From NCBI GenBank assembly GCA_965656375.1, contig CBFHKH010000001.1, positions 217,319 to 281,318 on the forward strand: DNA of 64,000 nucleotides. Direction: 5' to 3'. The notes below the pieces were generated by a model. That model was not told the DNA's origin. It worked only from the letters and a program-made list of their open reading frames with translations, and did not search any database. Source of the stretch: Minisyncoccia bacterium. Lineage in GTDB: Bacteria; Patescibacteriota; Minisyncoccia; Phycocordibacterales; UBA9973. The position numbers and the translations under genes were made by a program. Positions 3,162 to 23,968 of the stretch are shown here, piece by piece. Each line of letters begins with the position of its first letter. The stretch's first letter is position 1.

Positions 3162-3365
3162 AGAATTTATTTAATGGTGATTGTAATATCAAATAACTGT
3201 AATTAAACTGATATTACAATAAGTAGGATATTAGTCAATATTTAATTATGTACTACTTAGGGTTAATTTATTTGAACAAAATGTAAATCTGTGGGACTAC
3301 TAAGAGGCGCTTATGTATAATTAAAAATCTTTATTATTGAGAAGGTTTTTATTTTGATTCTTATC

Positions 3366-3394
3366 TTGACAAAATTTGTATAAATATGTATTAT
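3366..3394 (+). promoter_or_regulatory. sigma70-type consensus promoter TTGACA-N17-TATTAT
   Basis: TTGACA at 3366-3371, 17-nt spacer, TATTAT at 3389-3394 with TG immediately upstream. It lies 35 nt upstream of the 3429 ATG. Confidence 0.6.
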
Positions 3395-3428
3395 ATCTTT
3401 AAATTTTAAACCCAAAAAACTCTTTACC

Positions 3429-4262
3429 ATGACAGATAATAATTCAAGCAATGCATTCCGGTGCCCTTTTCAAATTAAGGGAGAAAAGGAAGGAACTATA
3501 ATTGAAGTTACTTTAGATGAAAATCGTGAATCAAGATTTAAACTAATTTCTGCAGCTTATAAAACATTTCATGAAAACACTAATCTGATATCGATTCGAT
3601 TCAGTATGCCTGCTTCCCTCTTAGAATCATGTGATTCTCTGGAAGGATTAAAAGCGTATATTGTGCCCTACCAAGCTGAAATATTAGGCGTAGAAATAGA
3701 TTATCGTTTAAATCCCTTTCTCCCCTATCAACTGGTTCACCATACAAGAGAAAGCATACAGCCTTTATATGAAAAGACACCATATAAATTTGCAACAGCA
3801 AACTACCTTTCCAAAGTTGTAAATGGTCACGGTTTTGAGCTAAATAAAATGGAAGATATTACGAGTTGGATAGAGTTTACGATATTACAAGCAATGATGG
3901 AAGGAGCAAAAAGCCCTGGTCTAATGATTGAAGATGAAAATCATATAACATTCCTTACAATAGCACCTGGAAGTATTACACTCCATCCTGAAGAGCATGA
4001 AGAAATTACTGGTCCTGGGAATAACAATAAGAATTGTTTTGGTATTGTTCTTAATCCCTTCTATCCTAAAGAATTTGCAAGATATAGTGAGAATATCCAA
4101 ATTGTTCTCTCAAGAATGAAGGATTTCTTTTCAATTTCCTTGGAACAAAGACAAAAGATTCGCTATAAGGCAAATCTTGTCTATAAAGAACATGGAGTTA
4201 AAATCAAAAACCTTCTGGAAGATCAACAACCAGCTGGAGTTTGGATTCCTGAGTATATTTAA
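3429..4262 (+). CDS. hypothetical protein (277 aa, soluble)
   Basis: Clean ORF bracketed by a consensus promoter and an intrinsic terminator. No motif recognised. Confidence 0.6.
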   Translation: MTDNNSSNAFRCPFQIKGEKEGTIIEVTLDENRESRFKLISAAYKTFHENTNLISIRFSMPASLLESCDSLEGLKAYIVPYQAEILGVEIDYRLNPFLPYQLVHHTRESIQPLYEKTPYKFATANYLSKVVNGHGFELNKMEDITSWIEFTILQAMMEGAKSPGLMIEDENHITFLTIAPGSITLHPEEHEEITGPGNNNKNCFGIVLNPFYPKEFARYSENIQIVLSRMKDFFSISLEQRQKIRYKANLVYKEHGVKIKNLLEDQQPAGVWIPEYI

Positions 4263-4282
4263 AATAATTGTGTTCAATATAG

Positions 4283-4317
4283 AAAAGCATTATCAACTGA
4301 TAATGCTTTTTATTTTT
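4283..4317 (+). terminator. rho-independent terminator
   Basis: AAAAGCATTATCA-ac-TGATAATGC stem followed by TTTTTATTTTTT. Confidence 0.7.
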
Positions 4318-4364
4318 TACCAATATTTGCTAAAATGCATACATTAATAGATAAAGGAAAATAT

Positions 4365-4927: not shown

Positions 4928-5545
4928 ATGACAGAGAAACATCTTTTCTTTGATTGGGATGGTATGAAATTTAATACCATACATGCTCAAATCCATTATA
5001 TAAATAAAACATATGGATTAAAGATCACAGTTTCGGATTATATACAGCATAATTATGATCCGGTAAAACTGCTTCCGAGCTTTATTCCCAATTTTGATTT
5101 AACACCGCATGAGGTATATCTTGATTTTGGTAAGAATTTTCAAGCATCAATAGAAGCACATGAGAGGATAGAACCAATGCCTGGCATGTGTGAAGTTATG
5201 CCCTTGCTTTCAAAGCTCTACACTATCCATACTGTAACGGCACGTCAGACATTCACGTTACCAGTGATCGAGTATATACATGATAAATATATACCTGGAT
5301 GCGTCGCTAATATTCATTGTGTATATGAGCGGACTGATGATGATTATATCGCAATCCCTAAAAAGGAGTACATACGAAATGTTGAAGGTGAAAAGGTTGC
5401 ATTCTTTGATGATAATCATCATGAGATAAAAGATATGAAACATGTGATTCCGTCATACCTCTTTGATCCTCACAGCCTCTATAAAAGTAGCTTCGAGTAT
5501 TATCGTGTTAAAAGCTGGATGCGGATCTGGCAAATGTTAAAATAA
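4928..5545 (+). CDS. HAD-superfamily hydrolase-like protein (possible 5'(3')-deoxyribonucleotidase type)
   Basis: N-terminal FFDWDG (DxDG motif I), downstream T/S motif and FFDDNHHE (motif IV DD). Confidence 0.5.
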   Translation: MTEKHLFFDWDGMKFNTIHAQIHYINKTYGLKITVSDYIQHNYDPVKLLPSFIPNFDLTPHEVYLDFGKNFQASIEAHERIEPMPGMCEVMPLLSKLYTIHTVTARQTFTLPVIEYIHDKYIPGCVANIHCVYERTDDDYIAIPKKEYIRNVEGEKVAFFDDNHHEIKDMKHVIPSYLFDPHSLYKSSFEYYRVKSWMRIWQMLK

Positions 5546-5556
5546 AATATTTTTAT

Positions 5557-5587
5557 AAAAAGCGTTATCATTTGATAACGCTTTTTT
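5557..5587 (+). terminator. rho-independent terminator
   Basis: AAAAAGCGTTATCA-ttt-TGATAACGC stem followed by TTTTTT. Same hairpin family as 4283 and 43924. Confidence 0.7.
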
Positions 5588-5676
5588 AAATATACTTTTA
5601 GCATTCAATTCGTATTGTTTGATACAAAGAGCCAGTAAATATCTTTTCCACATGGTAGTTTGCATAACAAGGTACT

Positions 5677-6027
5677 ATGCTATATACTATAAATATGAAG
5701 CCACAGGAAACAGAAAATCAAAAGTCACAAATGAGAAAAGGAATTCTTGAGTTCTGCATACTTCTCAGTATCTCTCGGGAAAAAAAGTATGCCACTGAAA
5801 TTATCAATGAACTCAAAACTGCAGACCTTATTGTCGTTGAAGGGACACTGTATCCCCTCCTCTCTCGCTTGCGGAGCGCTGAGCTCTTAACCCATACCTG
5901 GGAAGAATCTCAATCTGGTCCGCCACGCAAGTATTACTCCCTCACTCAAAAAGGACAGGATACATTAATAAGCCTTAAAGAAACCTGGTCGACACTTACA
6001 AAGTCAATTACTCATCTCTCAAAATAA
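5677..6027 (+). CDS. PadR family transcriptional regulator
   Basis: RKGILEFCILLSI...YATEII...GTLYPLLSRL...YYSLTQKG matches the PadR wHTH. The likely start is an internal Met (5731). Confidence 0.8.
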   Translation: MLYTINMKPQETENQKSQMRKGILEFCILLSISREKKYATEIINELKTADLIVVEGTLYPLLSRLRSAELLTHTWEESQSGPPRKYYSLTQKGQDTLISLKETWSTLTKSITHLSK

Positions 6028-6030
6028 TTT

Positions 6031-7098
6031 ATGAAAAAAACAATTCCAACAAGCATATCTCATACAATATTTTATATAGAAATCGACGCCTATGAGAAGC
6101 TCGATCTCTATCTTTCTGAAATTCGTAAGTATTTCTCGAATTTCGCTGATAACAAGGATATCATCGAAGATATAGAAAATCGCATCGAGGAACAGCTCCT
6201 TGATCTGTGTTCAAAAGACAAAACAGATCGAATAGTTAAGAGCGAATATATAGATATACTTATAGCTTCTATGGGTAGACCAGAAGAGTTTGGAGCAGAT
6301 GAAGAAAATCAATCATCGGCTACATCGTCTGATGCACCTAAAACATTCCGTAAGAAGCTGTATCGAGATACAGATAATGCAATTATTGGTGGTGTCGCAT
6401 CAGGGCTCGCACAGTATTTCGGTATTGATCCTGTTATTGTTCGGGTACTCTTCTTTATAAGCGTTTTTCTAGGAGGATTTGGCATTATCTCATACCTCTT
6501 CCTTTGGTTTGCAGTGCCAGAAGCAAAGACTGCTACTGAGAAGCTTGAGATGGAAGGTAGTCCCGTGACTCTTAATGAAGTGAAAAAAATAATCGAAGAT
6601 AAAGTTGAAGAAATCAAAGGCAAAGATGGCTTTAAAAAAAGCACTGAAAGACTCCGTGAATTCTTTGTCCGTATGAGTTCCCTTTTCTTCGGAACATTCG
6701 GAAAGTTTATTGGCATTGCTCTTGGCATCGCTGCTCTTCTAGGAACGGTTGCTCTTGTAACAGGCCTCATTATTCTCGTGAGTGCTATTACCTTGCCGAT
6801 TCCTGGTATTACAGCGTTTTCGTTCTATGGTATTGTTGGTGTCGTATTTCTTCTCTGTCTTATTCCTATACTCTTTATTGGTTTAGCTGGACATGCACTT
6901 TTGCGGTCGAATAAATCTTCGTACAAAACTTTAATAGGTATTCTCGCTTTAATATGGATCCTTACAGCAATAGCTGCAACTGTTATTGGATTCCATGTAG
7001 TGCGGAAACGTGTTGTGTATGTAGATTCTATTGAGCACTATCGTATGCAGTACCTAGATGACCTGAGATTTGAAAGTAGCCCTCACTCAATCTATTAG
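6031..7098 (+). CDS. PspC domain-containing membrane protein
   Basis: DNAIIGGVASGLAQYFGIDPVIVRVLFFI is the PspC domain. Several TM helices. Gene starts 4 nt after padR (operon). Confidence 0.8.
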   Translation: MKKTIPTSISHTIFYIEIDAYEKLDLYLSEIRKYFSNFADNKDIIEDIENRIEEQLLDLCSKDKTDRIVKSEYIDILIASMGRPEEFGADEENQSSATSSDAPKTFRKKLYRDTDNAIIGGVASGLAQYFGIDPVIVRVLFFISVFLGGFGIISYLFLWFAVPEAKTATEKLEMEGSPVTLNEVKKIIEDKVEEIKGKDGFKKSTERLREFFVRMSSLFFGTFGKFIGIALGIAALLGTVALVTGLIILVSAITLPIPGITAFSFYGIVGVVFLLCLIPILFIGLAGHALLRSNKSSYKTLIGILALIWILTAIAATVIGFHVVRKRVVYVDSIEHYRMQYLDDLRFESSPHSIY

Positions 7099-18265: not shown

Positions 18266-18290
18266 AAAATCCCCCATCTGGGGGATTTTG
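18266..18290. terminator. intrinsic terminator (serves minus-strand gene ending at 18299)
   Basis: AAAATCCCCCA-tc-TGGGGGATTTTGG. Confidence 0.6.
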
Positions 18291-18298
18291 GTATTGTC

Positions 18299-19243
18299 CT
18301 AGTTGATACCTGTAGGATAGAGTATCTTATCAGCCAAGGAATCAACATTAAATTCTATCCTTTCAGCTTTACATGCTTTCTGCTCTGGCTCGTCGTAATT
18401 CATACATTCAATAAATCGCAAGGTGAAGGATATTTCTTTTGATCCACTACTTGTAGGTGTACGATATGTGTAATTGGTATACGTACTGCCTGCTGCTCCT
18501 TCGCTCGAAGTTGTAATGCAGTATTCGTGACTTCCGAATGTCTTCTTTGTTGTAGTGTGGGTTCCATATCCAATGCCAGTTCCATCCTTGCAAGTGAACC
18601 CTTCGTTTATAGTTCTGACTTCTGGTGGCCAGGTTTCATTCTGGACTTTAATATATTTTGTAGATAACGCTTTTGGATTTGGATTTAAGTAGTTTGTTTT
18701 AAATCGTTGTGCTACTTTCCCACAATCTACAGCAGGAACGAAATTTTCATAGATGACACTCTCTCCATTCTTGAACCTGTACATCCCATTCATATCTTCA
18801 TATTTCTCTCCAATACCCTGCTTAAGGCCAGTTTTACCTACAATAAACATCTCTTCTTGAGTCGCTACCATACCTTCACCTGTAGATGTGTAAAGGATGG
18901 TAATTTTTTTAGGAAAATCTGCATCTTTGGTATTGGTAGTTACTGTACCTGTGTATTCACCCACCAAAGAATCTTTCTCCCCTGGTAGCCAGTTCATCAC
19001 GCCATGTACTGTATCTTTGCTATCATAGACGATAGATGTGAAAAGATAGTCAGATGTTTCTTTTCCTTTTGTTTCTTGGAAGTAACAATATTCTTTTCCA
19101 ACTGTGACTGTATCGCCTAACGTTTCTCCAGTTTGATCTGGAACTACTGTAAGTGGAATTTGCTTCTTCTTACTTACTCCATAAATAATAATTGCGAGCA
19201 CTAGTAATACTAATACGAGAAGTATTTTATTGTTTTTTGTCAT
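18299..19243 (-). CDS. hypothetical N-anchored secreted protein (314 aa)
   Basis: N-terminal TM helix MTKNNKILLVLVLLVLAIIIYGV. No motif. Confidence 0.5.
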   Translation of the reverse strand: MTKNNKILLVLVLLVLAIIIYGVSKKKQIPLTVVPDQTGETLGDTVTVGKEYCYFQETKGKETSDYLFTSIVYDSKDTVHGVMNWLPGEKDSLVGEYTGTVTTNTKDADFPKKITILYTSTGEGMVATQEEMFIVGKTGLKQGIGEKYEDMNGMYRFKNGESVIYENFVPAVDCGKVAQRFKTNYLNPNPKALSTKYIKVQNETWPPEVRTINEGFTCKDGTGIGYGTHTTTKKTFGSHEYCITTSSEGAAGSTYTNYTYRTPTSSGSKEISFTLRFIECMNYDEPEQKACKAERIEFNVDSLADKILYPTGIN

Positions 19244-19312: not shown

Positions 19313-19828
19313 TTAGTTACAGAGCACTTTCTTATACAAAAGCGATGTTGGTTCTCCTGTACGATCAGGAACCAGTACACCGTTGCCATCTACTTGCTCT
19401 TCATTTAACATATATCTTTGTTTCAGGAGATTTTCTCCATCAATCTTGTATATTTCAAGTTCTCTACCCTCTGATCCTTCTATGGTATAGGTGAAAAGGA
19501 GTTCAAGTATTGTTTTATCACTTGTTATCTCACCATTGAGACTGCCTATATAGCCATTTGTCATGTCAGGTCCGCTTTGAGTGCCACTCTTTGTGCCCGT
19601 TACGCTATTACCCGTACGAGTTATACTCATGTGTTCCTCTACAGCATACGGAGCATCTGGAGTTGATTTTTGAATATATACAAAGCAATACGATGTATTC
19701 TCTCTGAAACTATCTTGTATTGTTGTTGATTCTTGTGTTGGTGGTAACGTACGAGGTTTTATAAAATATAGAGAGCCAAGTATTACTATAATCACTACAA
19801 CTATCCCGACAAGTAATCTCTTATTCAT
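19313..19828 (-). CDS. hypothetical N-anchored secreted protein (171 aa)
   Basis: N-terminal TM helix. No motif. Confidence 0.5.
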   Translation of the reverse strand: MNKRLLVGIVVVIIVILGSLYFIKPRTLPPTQESTTIQDSFRENTSYCFVYIQKSTPDAPYAVEEHMSITRTGNSVTGTKSGTQSGPDMTNGYIGSLNGEITSDKTILELLFTYTIEGSEGRELEIYKIDGENLLKQRYMLNEEQVDGNGVLVPDRTGEPTSLLYKKVLCN

Positions 19829-19854: not shown

Positions 19855-21078
19855 TTAATGCGACCCTGGGAATGAATTCCCTCTCTGCCTGCCACTACCC
19901 TTAAGAGATGATGCACGTCGTACGGAATTATGTCCGAACTTGGAACGAATCTTATCAGCAACTTGTTCGACAATACTCCTCTTCTCAGATTCTATTTGGA
20001 TACCAAAAAGATCCTGAGGAACATCTTCGATCCGACGAAGATTATGAAGAGTTATGCCAGTTGATCGAATCTTCTCATCTTTTACTAGAGTTTTATAGAA
20101 AATTGGTTCTACGGCGTTCAAAATAACACTTGGATCTGTGGTATAGATGGTTAGACGAATTTCATTACCACGGTAACGAAAATCTGTATTTTTTATAAAG
20201 AAGGAGACAGAATTAGTCATAAGATCAAGTCTCCGAGCATGCTCACAAGCTCGTTCAACATTTTCTGAAAGCTCTGCGAATATAATCTCTTTCTCACTTG
20301 ATGAGGGTTTGAATGTTGCTGTTGATTGAATTGATTTTTGATCTCGGGGATCAGAATGAGAATCTACTGTATAGATAGGCTCTCCTCTGAGTTCTTTCTG
20401 TAAGATAGAAAGTGGTTCATTAAAATATTTCTCAATGTAATCAGCTGAGTATTTTACAAAGTCATATGCTGTTCTCATTCCCATTGATTGGAGTCTAGGA
20501 ACTGTTCGCCAGCCAATACCCCAGATATCATCAATGGGAGTATGTTTAAGAGCGTGTATCTCATCTTCATTGGTAAGAAGTACAACCATACCATTGGGTT
20601 TTTTCAGTTTTGATGCAGTTTTTGCAAGTGCTTTTGTACGAGCAAGACCGAGAGAAAATGTTACTCCGAGTGTATTTTCTATTTCATCTTTGATGTCCTG
20701 AACTAATTTTTCTGCGCTTCCTGCATACTTAATGTCGGATTCTTTAACTGTGGCAAAGCATTCATCTATGCTATATTGTTCAACTTCTTCGAGATATGAT
20801 TCTAGAATTGTATATACACCTTTTGAGATTTTAGTATATAAATCAAAGTGATGAGACAAGATAATGACCTGAGGAAAGAATTTCTTGATCTTAAATATTG
20901 GCATTCCTCGTGTTATACCAAGTAATTTTGCTTCGTGGCTCATCGCTACTGCGATCCCACGATCTTGTCCAACGATCACAGGCAATCCTTTGTATTCTGG
21001 ATGTTTTGATAATTCGCATGCGACAAAGAACGAATCCCCGTCAGCATGGAGAAAAAGGTTATCTGATCCTGTGTTCAT
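19855..21078 (-). CDS. dinB: Y-family DNA polymerase IV (DinB)
   Basis: N-terminal HADGDSFFVACE (DxDxFFxxxE), YSIDECF, LG..RTK motifs. Last gene of a LexA-controlled operon. Confidence 0.85.
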   Translation of the reverse strand: MNTGSDNLFLHADGDSFFVACELSKHPEYKGLPVIVGQDRGIAVAMSHEAKLLGITRGMPIFKIKKFFPQVIILSHHFDLYTKISKGVYTILESYLEEVEQYSIDECFATVKESDIKYAGSAEKLVQDIKDEIENTLGVTFSLGLARTKALAKTASKLKKPNGMVVLLTNEDEIHALKHTPIDDIWGIGWRTVPRLQSMGMRTAYDFVKYSADYIEKYFNEPLSILQKELRGEPIYTVDSHSDPRDQKSIQSTATFKPSSSEKEIIFAELSENVERACEHARRLDLMTNSVSFFIKNTDFRYRGNEIRLTIYTTDPSVILNAVEPIFYKTLVKDEKIRSTGITLHNLRRIEDVPQDLFGIQIESEKRSIVEQVADKIRSKFGHNSVRRASSLKGSGRQRGNSFPGSH

Positions 21079-21082
21079 ATAC

Positions 21083-21361
21083 TTATTTCAGCGCCCCTTC
21101 ACTCTTGAGCTTGCGGTATTTTTCTCTGGACCCACCACGATTGTAATCACCGATAACGCCGTCACTTCTGATAACACGATGACATGGGACATTTGGTCGG
21201 TAGTTTGCCTTCATAATAGATCCAACCGCACGCGCAGCGCCAGGACTTCCTGCACGAGTGGCAACTTCCTTGTAGGTCATGGTTTCTCCCTTTTTTATAC
21301 CAGAGACAATATTGAGTACTCGCTCTGTGAATAGTGTTAGTTTTTTGTTTGTACTTTTCAT
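21083..21361 (-). CDS. ogt: methylated-DNA-protein-cysteine methyltransferase, DNA-binding domain-only (MGMT/Ogt-like, 92 aa)
   Basis: Conserved PCHRVI active-site motif with the Cys retained. Helix-turn-helix-wing region. Confidence 0.75.
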   Translation of the reverse strand: MKSTNKKLTLFTERVLNIVSGIKKGETMTYKEVATRAGSPGAARAVGSIMKANYRPNVPCHRVIRSDGVIGDYNRGGSREKYRKLKSEGALK

Positions 21362-21366
21362 ATGTG

Positions 21367-23037
21367 TTATATAAATAATTTTGCTAATCGTATGTCCTCG
21401 AATGATAATTTGTGGCCTTCTTGCTCAAGTATTGTTTTAATCGGACTTAGCTTCCCTATATCTTCTCCTTCGAGAGTATTATTTACTCGTTTCACCAGAT
21501 CGATGTATGTATCTTTTGGTTTGATATGAGAGATGCTCGTTTCTGGATACTCTTTGATGATTTGTTCGATATGATGTGTTATGGTTCCTTTTGTAAGGCC
21601 TCGCTCCTTGGCAATATCGGCTACTCCTTTACCTTGGTCGAGTAATTGTTTTGTTATGAGTATCGTTGGAATTTTTATTTCTGGATCCTTTTTCTTTTTT
21701 CCAATTTCTAAAGTGCCTCCCATGCGAACGATGAACTCATGCTCGAGTTTCTCTTCTTCATGTGGTGTGAGCTTTCCGAACATGAGCTCGTTTTGTGTGC
21801 TTTCATTGCGAAGTTCCTGATCAAATGTAAGCACTTCTGGATCAACACGAAGTGCATCAGGATGGAATCCTATCAATCTGATGCCAGAAAGTGTGCGGAC
21901 TCGAGAGAGAGCAACGTAACCCATACCGTATGCAAAAGTGTGTGCAAGATCGATCTCTGCATTATCGAGTGATATTCCTTGGCTTTTATGAATAGTTATT
22001 GCCCAGGCGAGGCGTATCGGTAACTGACTGAGAAAAGCTTTTTCTTTACCATTTTCTTCTATTGCCCATTTCTCTGGAGTAGCATAGATGGTCTTGCCAT
22101 TATAGAGTTCGATAATCGGAGTACCATCAGAATCGATAAATCCAACAACTTTTCCTCGAGTACCGTTTACATATCCTTCTTCGAAATTATTCTTTATACA
22201 CATCACTTCGGCACCTACTTTTAATCGGAGTTCTTCTTGAGCAAGGCAGCTTTTCTTAAGTATTTCTACCAGAATCTCTGGACCAGTAGATGTCATGCGG
22301 TAGACTCTCTCTTCTGTCGCTATAGTTGCAAGCTCTGTATTATTTTCTATATCTACATTTGCGTTGTGTGTATAGAGCTTTGTAGGTCGAACATTGTTTC
22401 CGAGTTCTGCATTAAGGCGCTTCTCTAAGTGTTCATAATGTAGTACATCGACAGTGTTATCACGAATGGCATTCAATATATCTGTAAGCGTATCGTCTTC
22501 TTGGCGATGCTGTTCTGTGAGATAACAGATAGCAGGATTCATAATACGCCAGGCTTCACTATAGAGAACCATATCTTTGATAGTGCCTTCAGTCGATTTA
22601 TTTATCGGTGGGAGTTGAAAGAAGTCACCAGAGAGTATAACTTGTAATCCTCCAAATGGTTTATCGCTCCGTTTAAATCTTCTGCATACTCGTTCTACCA
22701 TGTCGAGTCTATGAGCATGAAGCATGGATACTTCATCAATGATAAGGACTCGAGCATTTTCGAAGCGTTTCCATAGGTATTGCTTACCTTCGAGAGTTTC
22801 AATGTCATGTTCATTCATAGTTTCCTTAATACCAATACCTGCCCATCCATGTATGGTCATACCATTCATATGAGTGGCAGCGATTCCCGTTGATGCAGTA
22901 ATAGCCACGGGGATGTCGTGGTTTTGTAAATACCGAATATATTGATTAAGGAGATATGTTTTTCCGCTTCCTGCGCTTCCTGTGAGATAGACATTTACTC
23001 CAGTCTTCATAATGGTAAATGCCTGCGCTTGAGTCAT
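21367..23037 (-). CDS. ATP-dependent DNA helicase, PIF1/RecD-like (AAA_30 plus UvrD_C_2) with C-terminal extension
   Basis: Walker A GSAGSGKTYLL, LIIDEVSM (Walker B), SF1 C-terminal motifs VALSRVRTL. About 130-aa C-terminal domain of unknown function. Confidence 0.7.
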   Translation of the reverse strand: MTQAQAFTIMKTGVNVYLTGSAGSGKTYLLNQYIRYLQNHDIPVAITASTGIAATHMNGMTIHGWAGIGIKETMNEHDIETLEGKQYLWKRFENARVLIIDEVSMLHAHRLDMVERVCRRFKRSDKPFGGLQVILSGDFFQLPPINKSTEGTIKDMVLYSEAWRIMNPAICYLTEQHRQEDDTLTDILNAIRDNTVDVLHYEHLEKRLNAELGNNVRPTKLYTHNANVDIENNTELATIATEERVYRMTSTGPEILVEILKKSCLAQEELRLKVGAEVMCIKNNFEEGYVNGTRGKVVGFIDSDGTPIIELYNGKTIYATPEKWAIEENGKEKAFLSQLPIRLAWAITIHKSQGISLDNAEIDLAHTFAYGMGYVALSRVRTLSGIRLIGFHPDALRVDPEVLTFDQELRNESTQNELMFGKLTPHEEEKLEHEFIVRMGGTLEIGKKKKDPEIKIPTILITKQLLDQGKGVADIAKERGLTKGTITHHIEQIIKEYPETSISHIKPKDTYIDLVKRVNNTLEGEDIGKLSPIKTILEQEGHKLSFEDIRLAKLFI

Positions 23038-23058
23038 AGGAATTTAGTATACCATTTC

Positions 23059-23625
23059 TTAATATTTACGAATGACAGCTTTTACAATTGCAGTGATGTT
23101 CATATAGGTAACTGGATAGATATTTTTGAAATCCTTGTTTGCAGGTTCGAGCCAAACTTTATCGCCCTCTTTTCTAAAATATTTCATAGTAAATTCTCCA
23201 TCAACATCCGCGATTACTATTTCTCCATCTTTTGCTTTATCAGTTCTTTCTACGAGCACCATATCACCATCAGCAATATGTGCATCGATCATAGAGTTAC
23301 CATCTACTTCGAGCATGTATGTAGTGCCCTTTTTCTGTACTAAGTATTCATCGAGATTGACGGTATCATGCGACTCTTCCGCGACATCAGCTGGGAATCC
23401 GGCTTTAACAAGGCCGAGGAGCGGAATACTATCAAAAGATTCATTGGCAACGAGTCTGCCCAAGTGATCTTTGGCAACGAGTCCTGCATCAATGAATTTT
23501 TCAACAAGTCGCGCAACAGCGTTCTTGGATTTAAAGCCGAATAAATGCATCATCTCAGTATATGTTGGCATTCGCTTTTCGCGAGCGTAGAAAGATTGGA
23601 GTTTAGATTTGTAGTCGTTATACAT
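23059..23625 (-). CDS. lexA: LexA repressor (S24 peptidase)
   Basis: N-terminal wHTH. Catalytic Ser in GNSM and Lys in the KDGE region of the S24 domain. Confidence 0.9.
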   Translation of the reverse strand: MYNDYKSKLQSFYAREKRMPTYTEMMHLFGFKSKNAVARLVEKFIDAGLVAKDHLGRLVANESFDSIPLLGLVKAGFPADVAEESHDTVNLDEYLVQKKGTTYMLEVDGNSMIDAHIADGDMVLVERTDKAKDGEIVIADVDGEFTMKYFRKEGDKVWLEPANKDFKNIYPVTYMNITAIVKAVIRKY

Positions 23626-23629
23626 ATAT

Positions 23630-23833
23630 TTAGAATATCAGAAACTGTGGTACTGCGAAAGAGAATCTGCTAAAAATACTCTTTCGTGAATGCTGTAGCA
23701 TCTTCTTCTGCAAGATCTTGTGATCGCGAGCTTCTTTTTTGTATTCGACACCTTGGAGAATCTTCATATCGATTCTCTTGTTGAGAGCCTGGAGCTCTCG
23801 CTCTATTATTTTGACGTATTGTTCTCTGTTCAT
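23630..23833 (-). CDS. small hypothetical protein (67 aa, predicted coiled coil) first gene of SOS operon
   Basis: Starts about 40 nt downstream of the LexA-box promoter and ends 4 nt before lexA. Confidence 0.35.
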   Translation of the reverse strand: MNREQYVKIIERELQALNKRIDMKILQGVEYKKEARDHKILQKKMLQHSRKSIFSRFSFAVPQFLIF

Positions 23834-23872
23834 AAAATATATTTATAATTACTACTAATTACTTATATATCT

Positions 23873-23901
23873 AGTATATGTGAACGATCGTTCACCGTCA
23901 A
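23873..23901 (-). promoter_or_regulatory. lexA-operon promoter with Cheo-type LexA operator (GTGAACGATCGTTCAC) in the spacer
   Basis: Minus strand reads TTGACG-gtGAACgatcGTTCaca-TATACT. Perfect GAAC-N4-GTTC palindrome at 23880-23895. Confidence 0.7.
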
Positions 23902-23930
23902 GCAAATATCTGTGGATAACCTTAAAACTA

Positions 23931-23960
23931 AAACCCCTTACTAAATAGTAAGGGGTTTTA
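23931..23960. terminator. bidirectional intrinsic terminator
   Basis: AAAACCCCTTACTA-aa-TAGTAAGGGGTTTTAG. Confidence 0.65.
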
Positions 23961-23968
23961 GTTTTAAA

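Follow-up and report, generated by a model that had tools for sequence, protein, structure and literature searches.

The window analysed here, a 64,000-nt stretch of contig CBFHKH010000001.1 (assembly GCA_965656375.1, positions 217,319 to 281,318), very probably harbors the autoregulated lexA (SOS) operon of a Paceibacteria bacterium (Patescibacteria, or Candidate Phyla Radiation, CPR). On the minus strand, five genes follow one another in the order: orf67, coding for a 67-aa orphan protein, lexA, a Pif1-family helicase gene, a gene coding for a 92-aa single-domain alkyltransferase of the MGMT family (ogt), and a gene coding for a Y-family DNA polymerase (dinB), with gaps of 4, 21, 5 and 4 nt between them. 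They are preceded by a promoter whose spacer is filled by a 16-bp perfect palindrome, GTGAACGATCGTTCAC, the putative LexA operator. A previous sequence-only reading of the locus had proposed a Cheo-type LexA box placed in a promoter of the sigma-70 type, from which a compact lexA operon carrying repair genes is expressed, and this central proposal is supported by the comparison with related genomes, phylogenetic footprinting having reinforced it strongly.

The lexA promoter and its operator

Direct reading of the sequence and a promoter scan, which reported sites with at least 9 of 12 consensus matches, bore out the claim that the palindrome fills the 17-nt spacer between TTGACG and TATACT on the minus strand (Table 1). 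The site TTGACG-17-TATACT has 10 of the 12 consensus matches and is among the best ones found in the region from 18 to 25 kb. Rarity within the window was rejected as evidence for the box, as neither the box nor the palindrome is rarer there than expected by chance: GAACNNNNGTTC occurs once versus 0.77 expected, and there are three perfect 16-nt palindromes versus about 1.2 in shuffled sequences. Position and conservation across species were therefore used as evidence.

The comparison set comprised 80 loci from different GTDB species representatives, 906 kb in all, which were gathered via LexA alignment and show LexA identity values of 67–90%; the homologues are labelled Patescibacteria, Paceibacteria or Nomurabacteria. 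All but one of the 67 copies of GAACGNNCGTTC in this set belong to the lexA-operon promoter, always lying between −35 and −10, and the box GAACGnnCGTTC is found 27–110 nt upstream of the orf67 start in about 68 of the 74 loci that could be evaluated. Alignment of 74 promoters anchored on the box revealed a shared order of elements, namely [A/G]GTTATCCACAG, about 8–10 nt, TTGAC(T/A/G) or TTGCAT, GTGAACGnnCGTTCAC, one variable base (A in 50 of the loci) and TATA(C/A)T. The operator bases G-T-G-A-A-C-G and C-G-T-T-C-A-C vary hardly or not at all in this alignment, which gives GTGAACGnnCGTTCAC as the operator consensus. The same layout, with GTGAAC-N4-GTTCAC, precedes very distant members of the orf67 family in three loci from outside the 80-locus set (L082, L083 and L085), and the same promoter architecture is also present in two further additional loci, L086 and L087.

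Because the box is conserved and nearly exclusive to the lexA-operon promoter across relatives, there is strong evidence, at the level of sequence, that the palindrome is a LexA operator and the hexamers a promoter, and lexA is accordingly predicted to be autoregulated through an operator in its own promoter. The 188-aa LexA scores 131.1 bits against the TIGR00498 equivalog model (cut-off 110.95), its residues 15–187 being aligned to model positions 21–201, and it matches Peptidase_S24 of Pfam with an E-value of 2.8e-29. In 16 homologues neither the cleavage site (Ala75-Gly76) nor the catalytic dyad (Ser111 and Lys148) varies.

The search for further GAAC-N4-GTTC boxes, proposed earlier as a way to define the regulon, yielded no second operator within the 64-kb window. 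Matches with one or two mismatches number 12 there versus about 17 expected; nearly all of them are intragenic, and the exceptions, such as a site in the ATP-synthase cluster, precede no repair gene. A metagenome scan with GTGAACGNNCGTTCAC, also intended to define the regulon, was uninformative, since only 32 of its 120 matches were orf67/lexA promoters and the rest came mostly from unrelated high-GC DNA.

Two kinds of box-like sequences were seen at other places. At 21064–21077 on the minus strand, TGAACACAGGATCA overlaps the dinB start codon and resembles a pair of LexA half-sites with one mismatch, which falls on an invariant core base; it is probably there by chance, because the four other one-mismatch matches in the window lie inside genes. 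TGAAC-N4-GTTC-like stretches with one mismatch to the 14-mer are located inside the helicase gene of several relatives (L003:8829, L008:8876, L022:2449, L026:1990 and others), with an exact GAAC-TCAT-GTTC core in some of them, and the equivalent stretch of the window, coding for N-E-L-M-F, has GAGC. These stretches are most simply regarded as a coding coincidence.

A DnaA-type box upstream of the promoter

Although the sequence-only reading recognized the promoter and the operator, it overlooked a conserved 9-mer, TTATCCACA, upstream of the −35 hexamer. This is its sole copy in the window. Of the 88 copies counted in the related loci (906 kb), 70 belong to the lexA-operon promoter, and 70 of the 80 loci possess it; in L002–L081 it is found about 60–130 nt upstream of orf67, and its conservation is comparable to that of the operator. 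The other 18 copies in 1.8 Mb (both strands) compare with about 11 expected according to a hand estimate from base composition. The distance between the 9-mer and −35 is 8–10 nt in 64 of the 74 aligned promoters and 1 or 19 nt in eight, and as these outlier spacings are about one helical turn away, they suggest that the helical phase of the 9-mer relative to −35 matters.

The sequence of the 9-mer coincides exactly with that of the canonical high-affinity DnaA box, and DnaA is its most likely binder, an assignment which we hold to be reasonably probable. To a smaller but still appreciable extent it is conceivable that the conserved GTTATCCACAG is not a DnaA site but is bound by some other regulator, activating or repressing, or acts as an upstream promoter element found only in these bacteria. 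DnaA-regulated promoters often carry clusters of boxes, while only one box is present at the lexA promoter; the near-fixed spacing, with its outliers roughly one turn off, would fit any activator bound to a specific face of the helix, and the flanking G and G, which lie outside the 9-mer, are conserved too. What speaks for DnaA, on the other hand, is the exact coincidence with the canonical box, the small number of copies elsewhere and the fact that several of those other copies are also situated at promoters. A literature search for promoters combining a DnaA box with a LexA box returned nothing relevant, and no dnaA/oriC region is available for comparison in the window or in the fetched loci.

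The sequence GTTATCCACAG was also noticed just downstream of a TTGACA-17-CATAAA promoter in L016:3150-3250, L021:12700-12800, L029:10670-10770, L004:10340-10440 and L007:5680-5780. In L016, L021 and L029 this promoter points at a YdjM-like membrane protein and/or an SWIB-like 85-aa protein, the former scoring 25.3 bits against Pfam YdjM (below the cut-off of 29) and the latter being likened to SWIB by eye only. In Pfam, YdjM is characterised as a LexA-regulated family; no LexA box was detected at the TTGACA-17-CATAAA promoters of the YdjM-like and SWIB-like genes.

Operon layout and gene content in related genomes

The five genes are co-directional and separated by short gaps, as had been claimed. 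The unit had been placed at 21083–23901; it is real, but this interval leaves out the dinB gene named in the title given to it, and the unit reaches at least to 19855. The promoter scan found no site with at least 9 of 12 matches before the starts of the helicase gene, ogt or dinB, and there is neither a terminator between these three genes nor a second box inside the operon. All minus-strand promoter-like sites inside the unit are in coding sequence (TGAACA-16-AATAAT at the orf67 start and ATGAGA-16-TAAAAT inside dinB), and its sole terminator-like site is weak and lies within dinB. Since the gaps are short and internal promoters, terminators and boxes are absent, we infer a single polycistronic transcript. 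Upstream of the promoter there is a long perfect hairpin, AAAACTAAAACCCCTTACTA-TT-TAGTAAGGGGTTTTAGTTTT, which is likely to insulate the operon from upstream transcription; Rfam gave only sub-threshold, hairpin-generic matches for it.

Gene order in the relatives was mapped by tblastn. The orf67 gene is located directly upstream of lexA in about 75 of the 80 loci, mostly with gaps of −8 to +15 nt, and is the most constant partner of lexA, more so than any cargo gene; this had been overlooked, although the presence of a 67-aa open reading frame (ORF) before lexA had been correctly noted. The gene directly after lexA is very variable. Among 67 loci with at least 1.8 kb of sequence past lexA, it is the helicase gene in 30 (and in two more past a small ORF call), MGMT in three, dinB in two and something else in 32, including DNA methylases, MazG, EngB, HAD phosphatases, a RhuM/Fic protein and housekeeping genes. 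The order lexA-helicase-MGMT is shared by the nearest relatives L002, L003, L004 and L027, and dinB follows MGMT in the window only, as far as species representatives are concerned; in the additional loci L086 and L087 dinB comes after MGMT as in the window. The full five-gene operon was found, via the closest dinB homologues, in two other genomes, GCA_040384425.1 (dinB 78% identical) and ERZ2272819 (74%), and these two operons have one operator each, at the first promoter.

The gene combination, described earlier as unusual, is indeed so in comparison with textbook lexA or dinB loci, but within the clade orf67-lexA is the rule, lexA-helicase is common and the five-gene form exists in at least two other genomes. 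It is most likely, judging from this distribution, that orf67-lexA is the ancestral core, that the helicase gene is a frequent addition to it and that ogt and dinB were recruited in this sub-lineage. A recent horizontal insertion of dinB was rejected, as its GC content, overall and at third codon positions (GC3), is ordinary and the arrangement is common to diverged genomes.

It could also be argued that only orf67 and lexA are LexA-controlled and that the helicase gene, ogt and dinB are adjacent to them owing to small-genome packing, being transcribed partly from weak internal promoters. The variability of the gene after lexA would agree with this, as would the lexA-helicase gaps of 59–130 nt in some loci and the tight packing of unrelated genes in small genomes. 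We nevertheless consider it quite improbable, since the gaps in the window are 4–21 nt with no promoter-like site of at least 9/12 or terminator before the three cargo genes, the products of all three handle damaged DNA, genomes with 74–78% dinB identity retain this order, and a dinB gene residing outside the operon has a LexA box of its own (L039).

The latter locus contains what may be called an SOS island (L039:600-7600), with four LexA-box promoters within 7 kb preceding a RhuM/Fic gene (697-1695), a gene coding for a 369-aa protein (3233-4342), dinB (5240-6496) and orf67-lexA; two of the extra LexA-box promoters also have a TTATCCACA-like box. In L073, the ORF directly after lexA closely resembles, by eye, the RhuM/Fic protein of L039. 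As dinB possesses its own LexA box in L039, it appears to belong to the LexA regulon of the clade in some lineages and to have been joined to the lexA transcript in the lineage of the window.

It is scarcely credible that the palindrome is an operator of another regulator or a chance match, and the S24 protein a phage-type repressor on a mobile element: although 64 kb of sequence should hold one GAAC-N4-GTTC match by chance alone, palindromes of 16 nt are no rarity and LexA_DNA_bind of Pfam is unmatched, the protein exceeds the cut-off of the LexA equivalog model, synteny holds across the 80 species representatives beside housekeeping genes (ATP synthase, a rhodanese-family gene), the operator is almost confined to the lexA-operon promoter, neither orf67 nor the composite promoter was found in viral contigs, and the base composition of the locus shows no anomaly. 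A mobile-element or phage origin of the locus was rejected on the last two of these grounds.

Several points weigh against the operon as it is proposed here. RecA is not encoded in the window, which makes the inducing side of the circuit an assumption, and co-transcription was deduced from gaps of 4–21 nt together with the absence of predicted internal signals. The N-terminal domain of LexA has no match to LexA_DNA_bind at E ≤ 0.01, with the TIGR00498 alignment covering residues 15–187; as LexA_DNA_bind alone is unmatched, this domain is probably divergent. A stand-alone dinB gene in L089, another locus from outside the 80-locus set, has no box within 160 nt, which means that LexA control of dinB does not extend to the whole clade. 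The 9-mer was assigned to DnaA solely by its identity with the canonical box, and orf67 has no homologue of known function and a tail which is not significantly amphipathic.

Table 1 Features of the lexA locus and its surroundings. Positions are counted from the first nucleotide of the window.
Feature	Position	Strand	Basis and remarks
Long perfect hairpin, AAAACTAAAACCCCTTACTA-TT-TAGTAAGGGGTTTTAGTTTT	23924..23965	-	Putative terminator of the upstream 190-aa gene; read from sequence
TTATCCACA, perfect match to the canonical DnaA-box 9-mer	23911..23919	-	9 nt upstream of -35; candidate second regulatory input
-35 hexamer TTGACG	23896..23901	-	Promoter scan; TTGAC kept in most of 74 related promoters, TTGCA in a minority
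17-nt spacer GTGAACGATCGTTCACA	23895-23879	-	Direct sequence reading
Putative LexA operator, 16-bp perfect palindrome GTGAACGATCGTTCAC with Cheo-type GAAC-N4-GTTC core	23880..23895	.	Fills the promoter spacer
-10 hexamer TATACT	23873..23878	-	Promoter scan; TATACT or TATAAT conserved in 74 related promoters
orf67, 67-aa orphan, predicted helical hairpin with aromatic/basic C-terminal tail	23630..23833	-	First operon gene; stop 4 nt before lexA start
lexA, 188 aa, S24 peptidase domain and N-terminal DNA-binding domain	23059..23625	-	TIGR00498; Peptidase_S24
Pif1-family superfamily 1B (SF1B) 5'-3' DNA helicase (activity predicted), 556 aa	21367..23037	-	Pfam and PDB similarity
HTH_40 domain (PF14493), helicase residues 459-552	21382..21663	-	E 2.6e-12, 47.3 bits, cut-off 27
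Single-domain O6-alkylguanine-DNA alkyltransferase (MGMT C-terminal domain only), 92 aa	21083..21361	-	DNA_binding_1; PCHRV retained
Y-family translesion DNA polymerase (DinB/Pol IV-like), 407 aa	19855..21078	-	Pfam IMS, IMS_HHH, IMS_C
171-aa protein, N-terminal hydrophobic segment, no known family	19313..19828	-	26 nt past dinB, no terminator between
314-aa protein, same family as the 171-aa protein	18299..19243	-	Own promoter-like site TCGACA-17-TATACT, 19278-19250

The orf67 family

The orf67 protein has no match in Pfam, NCBIfam or PHROGs; a PDB sequence-profile search and Foldseek against PDB gave nothing significant, and Pfam scans of individual family members returned scattered noise only. 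HMM and structure searches had been suggested earlier for both this protein and the C-terminal domain of the helicase, and while the latter was identified as HTH_40, the 67-aa protein could be assigned to no family or fold. A profile search against 1.84 billion representatives retrieved 256 cluster representatives at E ≤ 1e-3, nearly all of them 60–90 aa in length. Five distant members were looked up, four of which are encoded directly upstream of an S24/LexA gene; the fifth, with a true transmembrane tail, is not. Over the first 49 codons in 11 close relatives the nonsynonymous divergence (pN) is 0.075 versus a synonymous one (pS) of 0.77, and the sequences therefore point to a real family under strong purifying selection.

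The AlphaFold2 model has an overall predicted local distance difference test (pLDDT) score of 79.5 and contains two helices, 3–27 and 32–48, with values above 90 there and low confidence in the tail. The tail is basic and aromatic (RRSFFxRFF...F) and in most members not long enough to cross a membrane, the longest run in it without D, E, K, R, N, Q and H being 6 residues (median) and at most 11; the distant members P0307 and P0175 have a true C-terminal transmembrane segment. An amphipathic membrane-targeting helix in the tail is not claimed, the median z of the hydrophobic moment being 0.7 relative to shuffled sequences.

In the 5′ untranslated region (5′UTR) preceding orf67, roughly between +5 and +25 of the transcript as predicted, there is an AT-rich block (23845–23866, minus strand), which is conserved in this place in about 35 related loci. 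Its consensus, TAGTyrATTA-N-TAGTAATTA, is a near direct repeat whose period is about 11 nt. The possibility that the 5′UTR forms a conserved RNA hairpin was rejected: single-sequence folds gave a weak one, but RNAalifold gave no consensus structure and there is no Rfam family. Six of the loci (L015, L028, L036, L046, L068 and L075) have a GC-rich double hairpin of about 45 nt inserted in the orf67 5′UTR (GTCGCG...CGCGAC followed by ACGATTTCGCAAAATCGT); Rfam returned no match for it in L036, the only one searched.

Proteins encoded by the cargo genes

The helicase matches the Pfam families PIF1 (PF05970; E-value 1.2e-37, 130 bits) and Pif1_2B_dom (PF21530; 2.4e-11, 43.6 bits). Its best solved relative is human PIF1 (6hpt), with an E-value of 8.9e-76 over residues 5–411, the values for yeast and Bacteroides Pif1 being 1e-67 to 1e-48, and it falls far below the cut-offs of the RecD2 and RecD equivalog models. 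By these matches it is to be considered a bona fide Pif1-family member. It had been described as a PIF1-like helicase with a C-terminal extension, and the family assignment stands; the extension is not novel and corresponds to the known HTH_40 domain, which Pfam characterises as frequent at the C-termini of helicases. RecD-related SF1 helicases encoded in LexA/UmuCD operons were noted earlier by Aravind, Anand and Iyer (2013, PMC3765255). The locus resembles those operons, where an SF1B helicase gene is likewise found together with genes for LexA and a Y-family polymerase, an association implying a role in the damage response, and differs from them in that its helicase is a bona fide Pif1 closest to human PIF1 and with an HTH_40 tail, and in that no SRAP/DUF159 gene is present.

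The 92-aa protein matches DNA_binding_1 of Pfam (PF01035) with an E-value of 3.6e-26 over residues 11–89 and scores 74 bits against the TIGR00589 ogt superfamily model (cut-off 46.4), but stays below the cut-off of every full-length Ogt/Ada equivalog, e.g. 48 versus 192 for PRK10286. It aligns to human MGMT residues 94–163 including PCHRV. The protein had been termed a DNA-binding-domain-only MGMT that retains PCHRV; the motif is indeed retained, whereas DNA_binding_1 is in fact the catalytic C-terminal domain with the acceptor Cys, and it is the N-terminal domain of MGMT that is absent. Like the alkyltransferase-like (ATL) proteins, it consists of a single MGMT C-terminal fold of about 100 aa (matches to 3gva and 2kif), and like Ogt it possesses the PCHRV acceptor motif. 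Unlike ATLs, in which the active-site Cys is replaced, it keeps this cysteine and is therefore not placed among them, and unlike Ogt and Ada it has no N-terminal domain, for which reason, together with its scores below all full-length equivalog cut-offs, it is not classified as Ogt either. By sequence it is thus best described as an MGMT-family protein with one domain, distinct from standard Ogt and from the ATLs alike.

The polymerase matches IMS of Pfam (PF00817) with an E-value of 1e-39, as well as PF11798 and PF11799, i.e. the HhH and little-finger domains. Its best NCBIfam model is Pol IV PRK03103 with 212.9 bits, which is below the cut-off of 381, compared to 164.5 bits for UmuC PRK03609, so a Pol IV-like rather than a UmuC-like enzyme is favored.

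Comparison with known LexA regulons

The operator type, LexA autoregulation and LexA control of a Y-family polymerase are already classic. With respect to the accessible literature, three features appear to be new, namely an orphan family (orf67) that constantly provides the lexA operon with its first gene, a DnaA-type box conserved at the promoter, and the presence of a bona fide Pif1 helicase and a one-domain, Cys-containing MGMT in what is probably one LexA-controlled transcript, although parts of this may have been described already in work on the SOS response of Patescibacteria. In particular, the comparative genomics study of the Patescibacteria SOS network by Sanchez-Osuna, Barbe and Erill (2017, Environ Microbiol 19:3465) is a direct precedent for a LexA regulon there.

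The Cheo-box regulons of Bacillus subtilis DinR/LexA likewise have a GAAC-N4-GTTC core overlapping the promoter and an autoregulated LexA, and in both cases a Y-family polymerase belongs to the unit, as does a small protein whose gene adjoins lexA. The core LexA regulon of Gram-positive bacteria includes error-prone polymerases and a cell-division inhibitor (PMC7739468). In contrast to those regulons, the operator of the window is extended and stricter (GTGAACGnnCGTTCAC), the small gene is located upstream of lexA in what should be the same transcript and is not divergent from it, and the unit additionally contains a Pif1 helicase gene, a minimal MGMT gene and a DnaA-type box before −35.

Small, poorly conserved division inhibitors encoded beside lexA under a LexA box are represented by YneA, SosA, ChiZ and DivS, as well as SulA in lexA-sulA operons (PMC6851548). 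The orf67 protein is like YneA, SosA, ChiZ and DivS in size, position and control by a LexA box. The searches revealed no similarity to the known inhibitors in sequence or fold. In YneA-type inhibitors a transmembrane segment is located at the N-terminus, the C-terminus is extracellular and usually carries LysM, and the genes are divergently transcribed; for orf67 the prediction is a helical hairpin in the cytoplasm with a short aromatic/basic tail, and it has no LysM and, in most members, no full transmembrane segment. As these membrane-span and LysM features are missing, orf67 could be only a functional analogue of the YneA-type inhibitors. Its most probable role is that of an SOS effector (a checkpoint protein for division or replication, for instance) or of a LexA modulator; given the tight translational coupling between orf67 and lexA, the second role is an equal alternative to the first.

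Proposed mechanism and its implications

In the operon as we reconstruct it, a LexA dimer on GTGAACGATCGTTCAC would block RNA polymerase, which bound LexA should exclude because the palindrome takes up the whole −35/−10 spacer. Following DNA damage, RecA-stimulated self-cleavage of LexA at Ala75-Gly76 by the Ser111/Lys148 dyad would free the promoter and allow the synthesis of one polycistronic mRNA coding for the orf67 protein, LexA, the Pif1 helicase with HTH_40, the one-domain alkyltransferase and the Y-family polymerase, and possibly for two downstream secreted proteins as well, with newly made LexA resetting the switch. The DnaA-box 9-mer would probably add a second input tied to replication status. 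Judging from the known activities of the Pif1 and Pol IV families, it is plausible that the helicase and the polymerase cooperate at stalled forks.

A more general scheme may be offered tentatively, although as a whole it is rather unlikely to be correct. According to it, the paceibacterial lexA promoter is a switch combining a high-affinity DnaA box at about −50, which senses replication, with a LexA operator, which senses damage; its first and most conserved product is, instead of LexA, a helical-hairpin protein of 64–70 aa not described before, which is translationally coupled to LexA and either executes the SOS checkpoint of the clade or modulates LexA directly, and a bacterial Pif1 is employed for damage tolerance alongside Pol IV.

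The Patescibacteria have minimal genomes and almost no experimental genetics, so a compact regulatory unit of this kind is a rare spot where physiology can be read from sequence. The role of Pif1 in bacteria is still called poorly known (PMC3113762, PMC9964779). The operon would put a Pif1 helicase under a DNA-damage switch, beside a translesion polymerase and a protein repairing alkyl damage, and, if true, the linkage to lexA would be the first regulatory clue to the purpose of the bacterial Pif1 helicase. With its 256 cluster representatives, orf67 is a tangible candidate for the SOS checkpoint or LexA-partner function still missing from the superphylum. Should the DnaA-type box be real, signals of damage and of replication initiation would be integrated at the very promoter of the master repressor.

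Downstream genes

Past dinB, two minus-strand genes code for the 171-aa and 314-aa proteins listed in Table 1, which are paralogous and share an N-terminal hydrophobic segment and a common domain that Pfam does not recognize. Past dinB, a terminator-like hairpin on the minus strand first appears behind the 314-aa gene, at 18285–18271. The 171-aa gene is a possible passenger of the operon, and since homologues of the 314-aa protein are also encoded after the helicase in about nine related loci, proteins of this family may be its habitual passengers.

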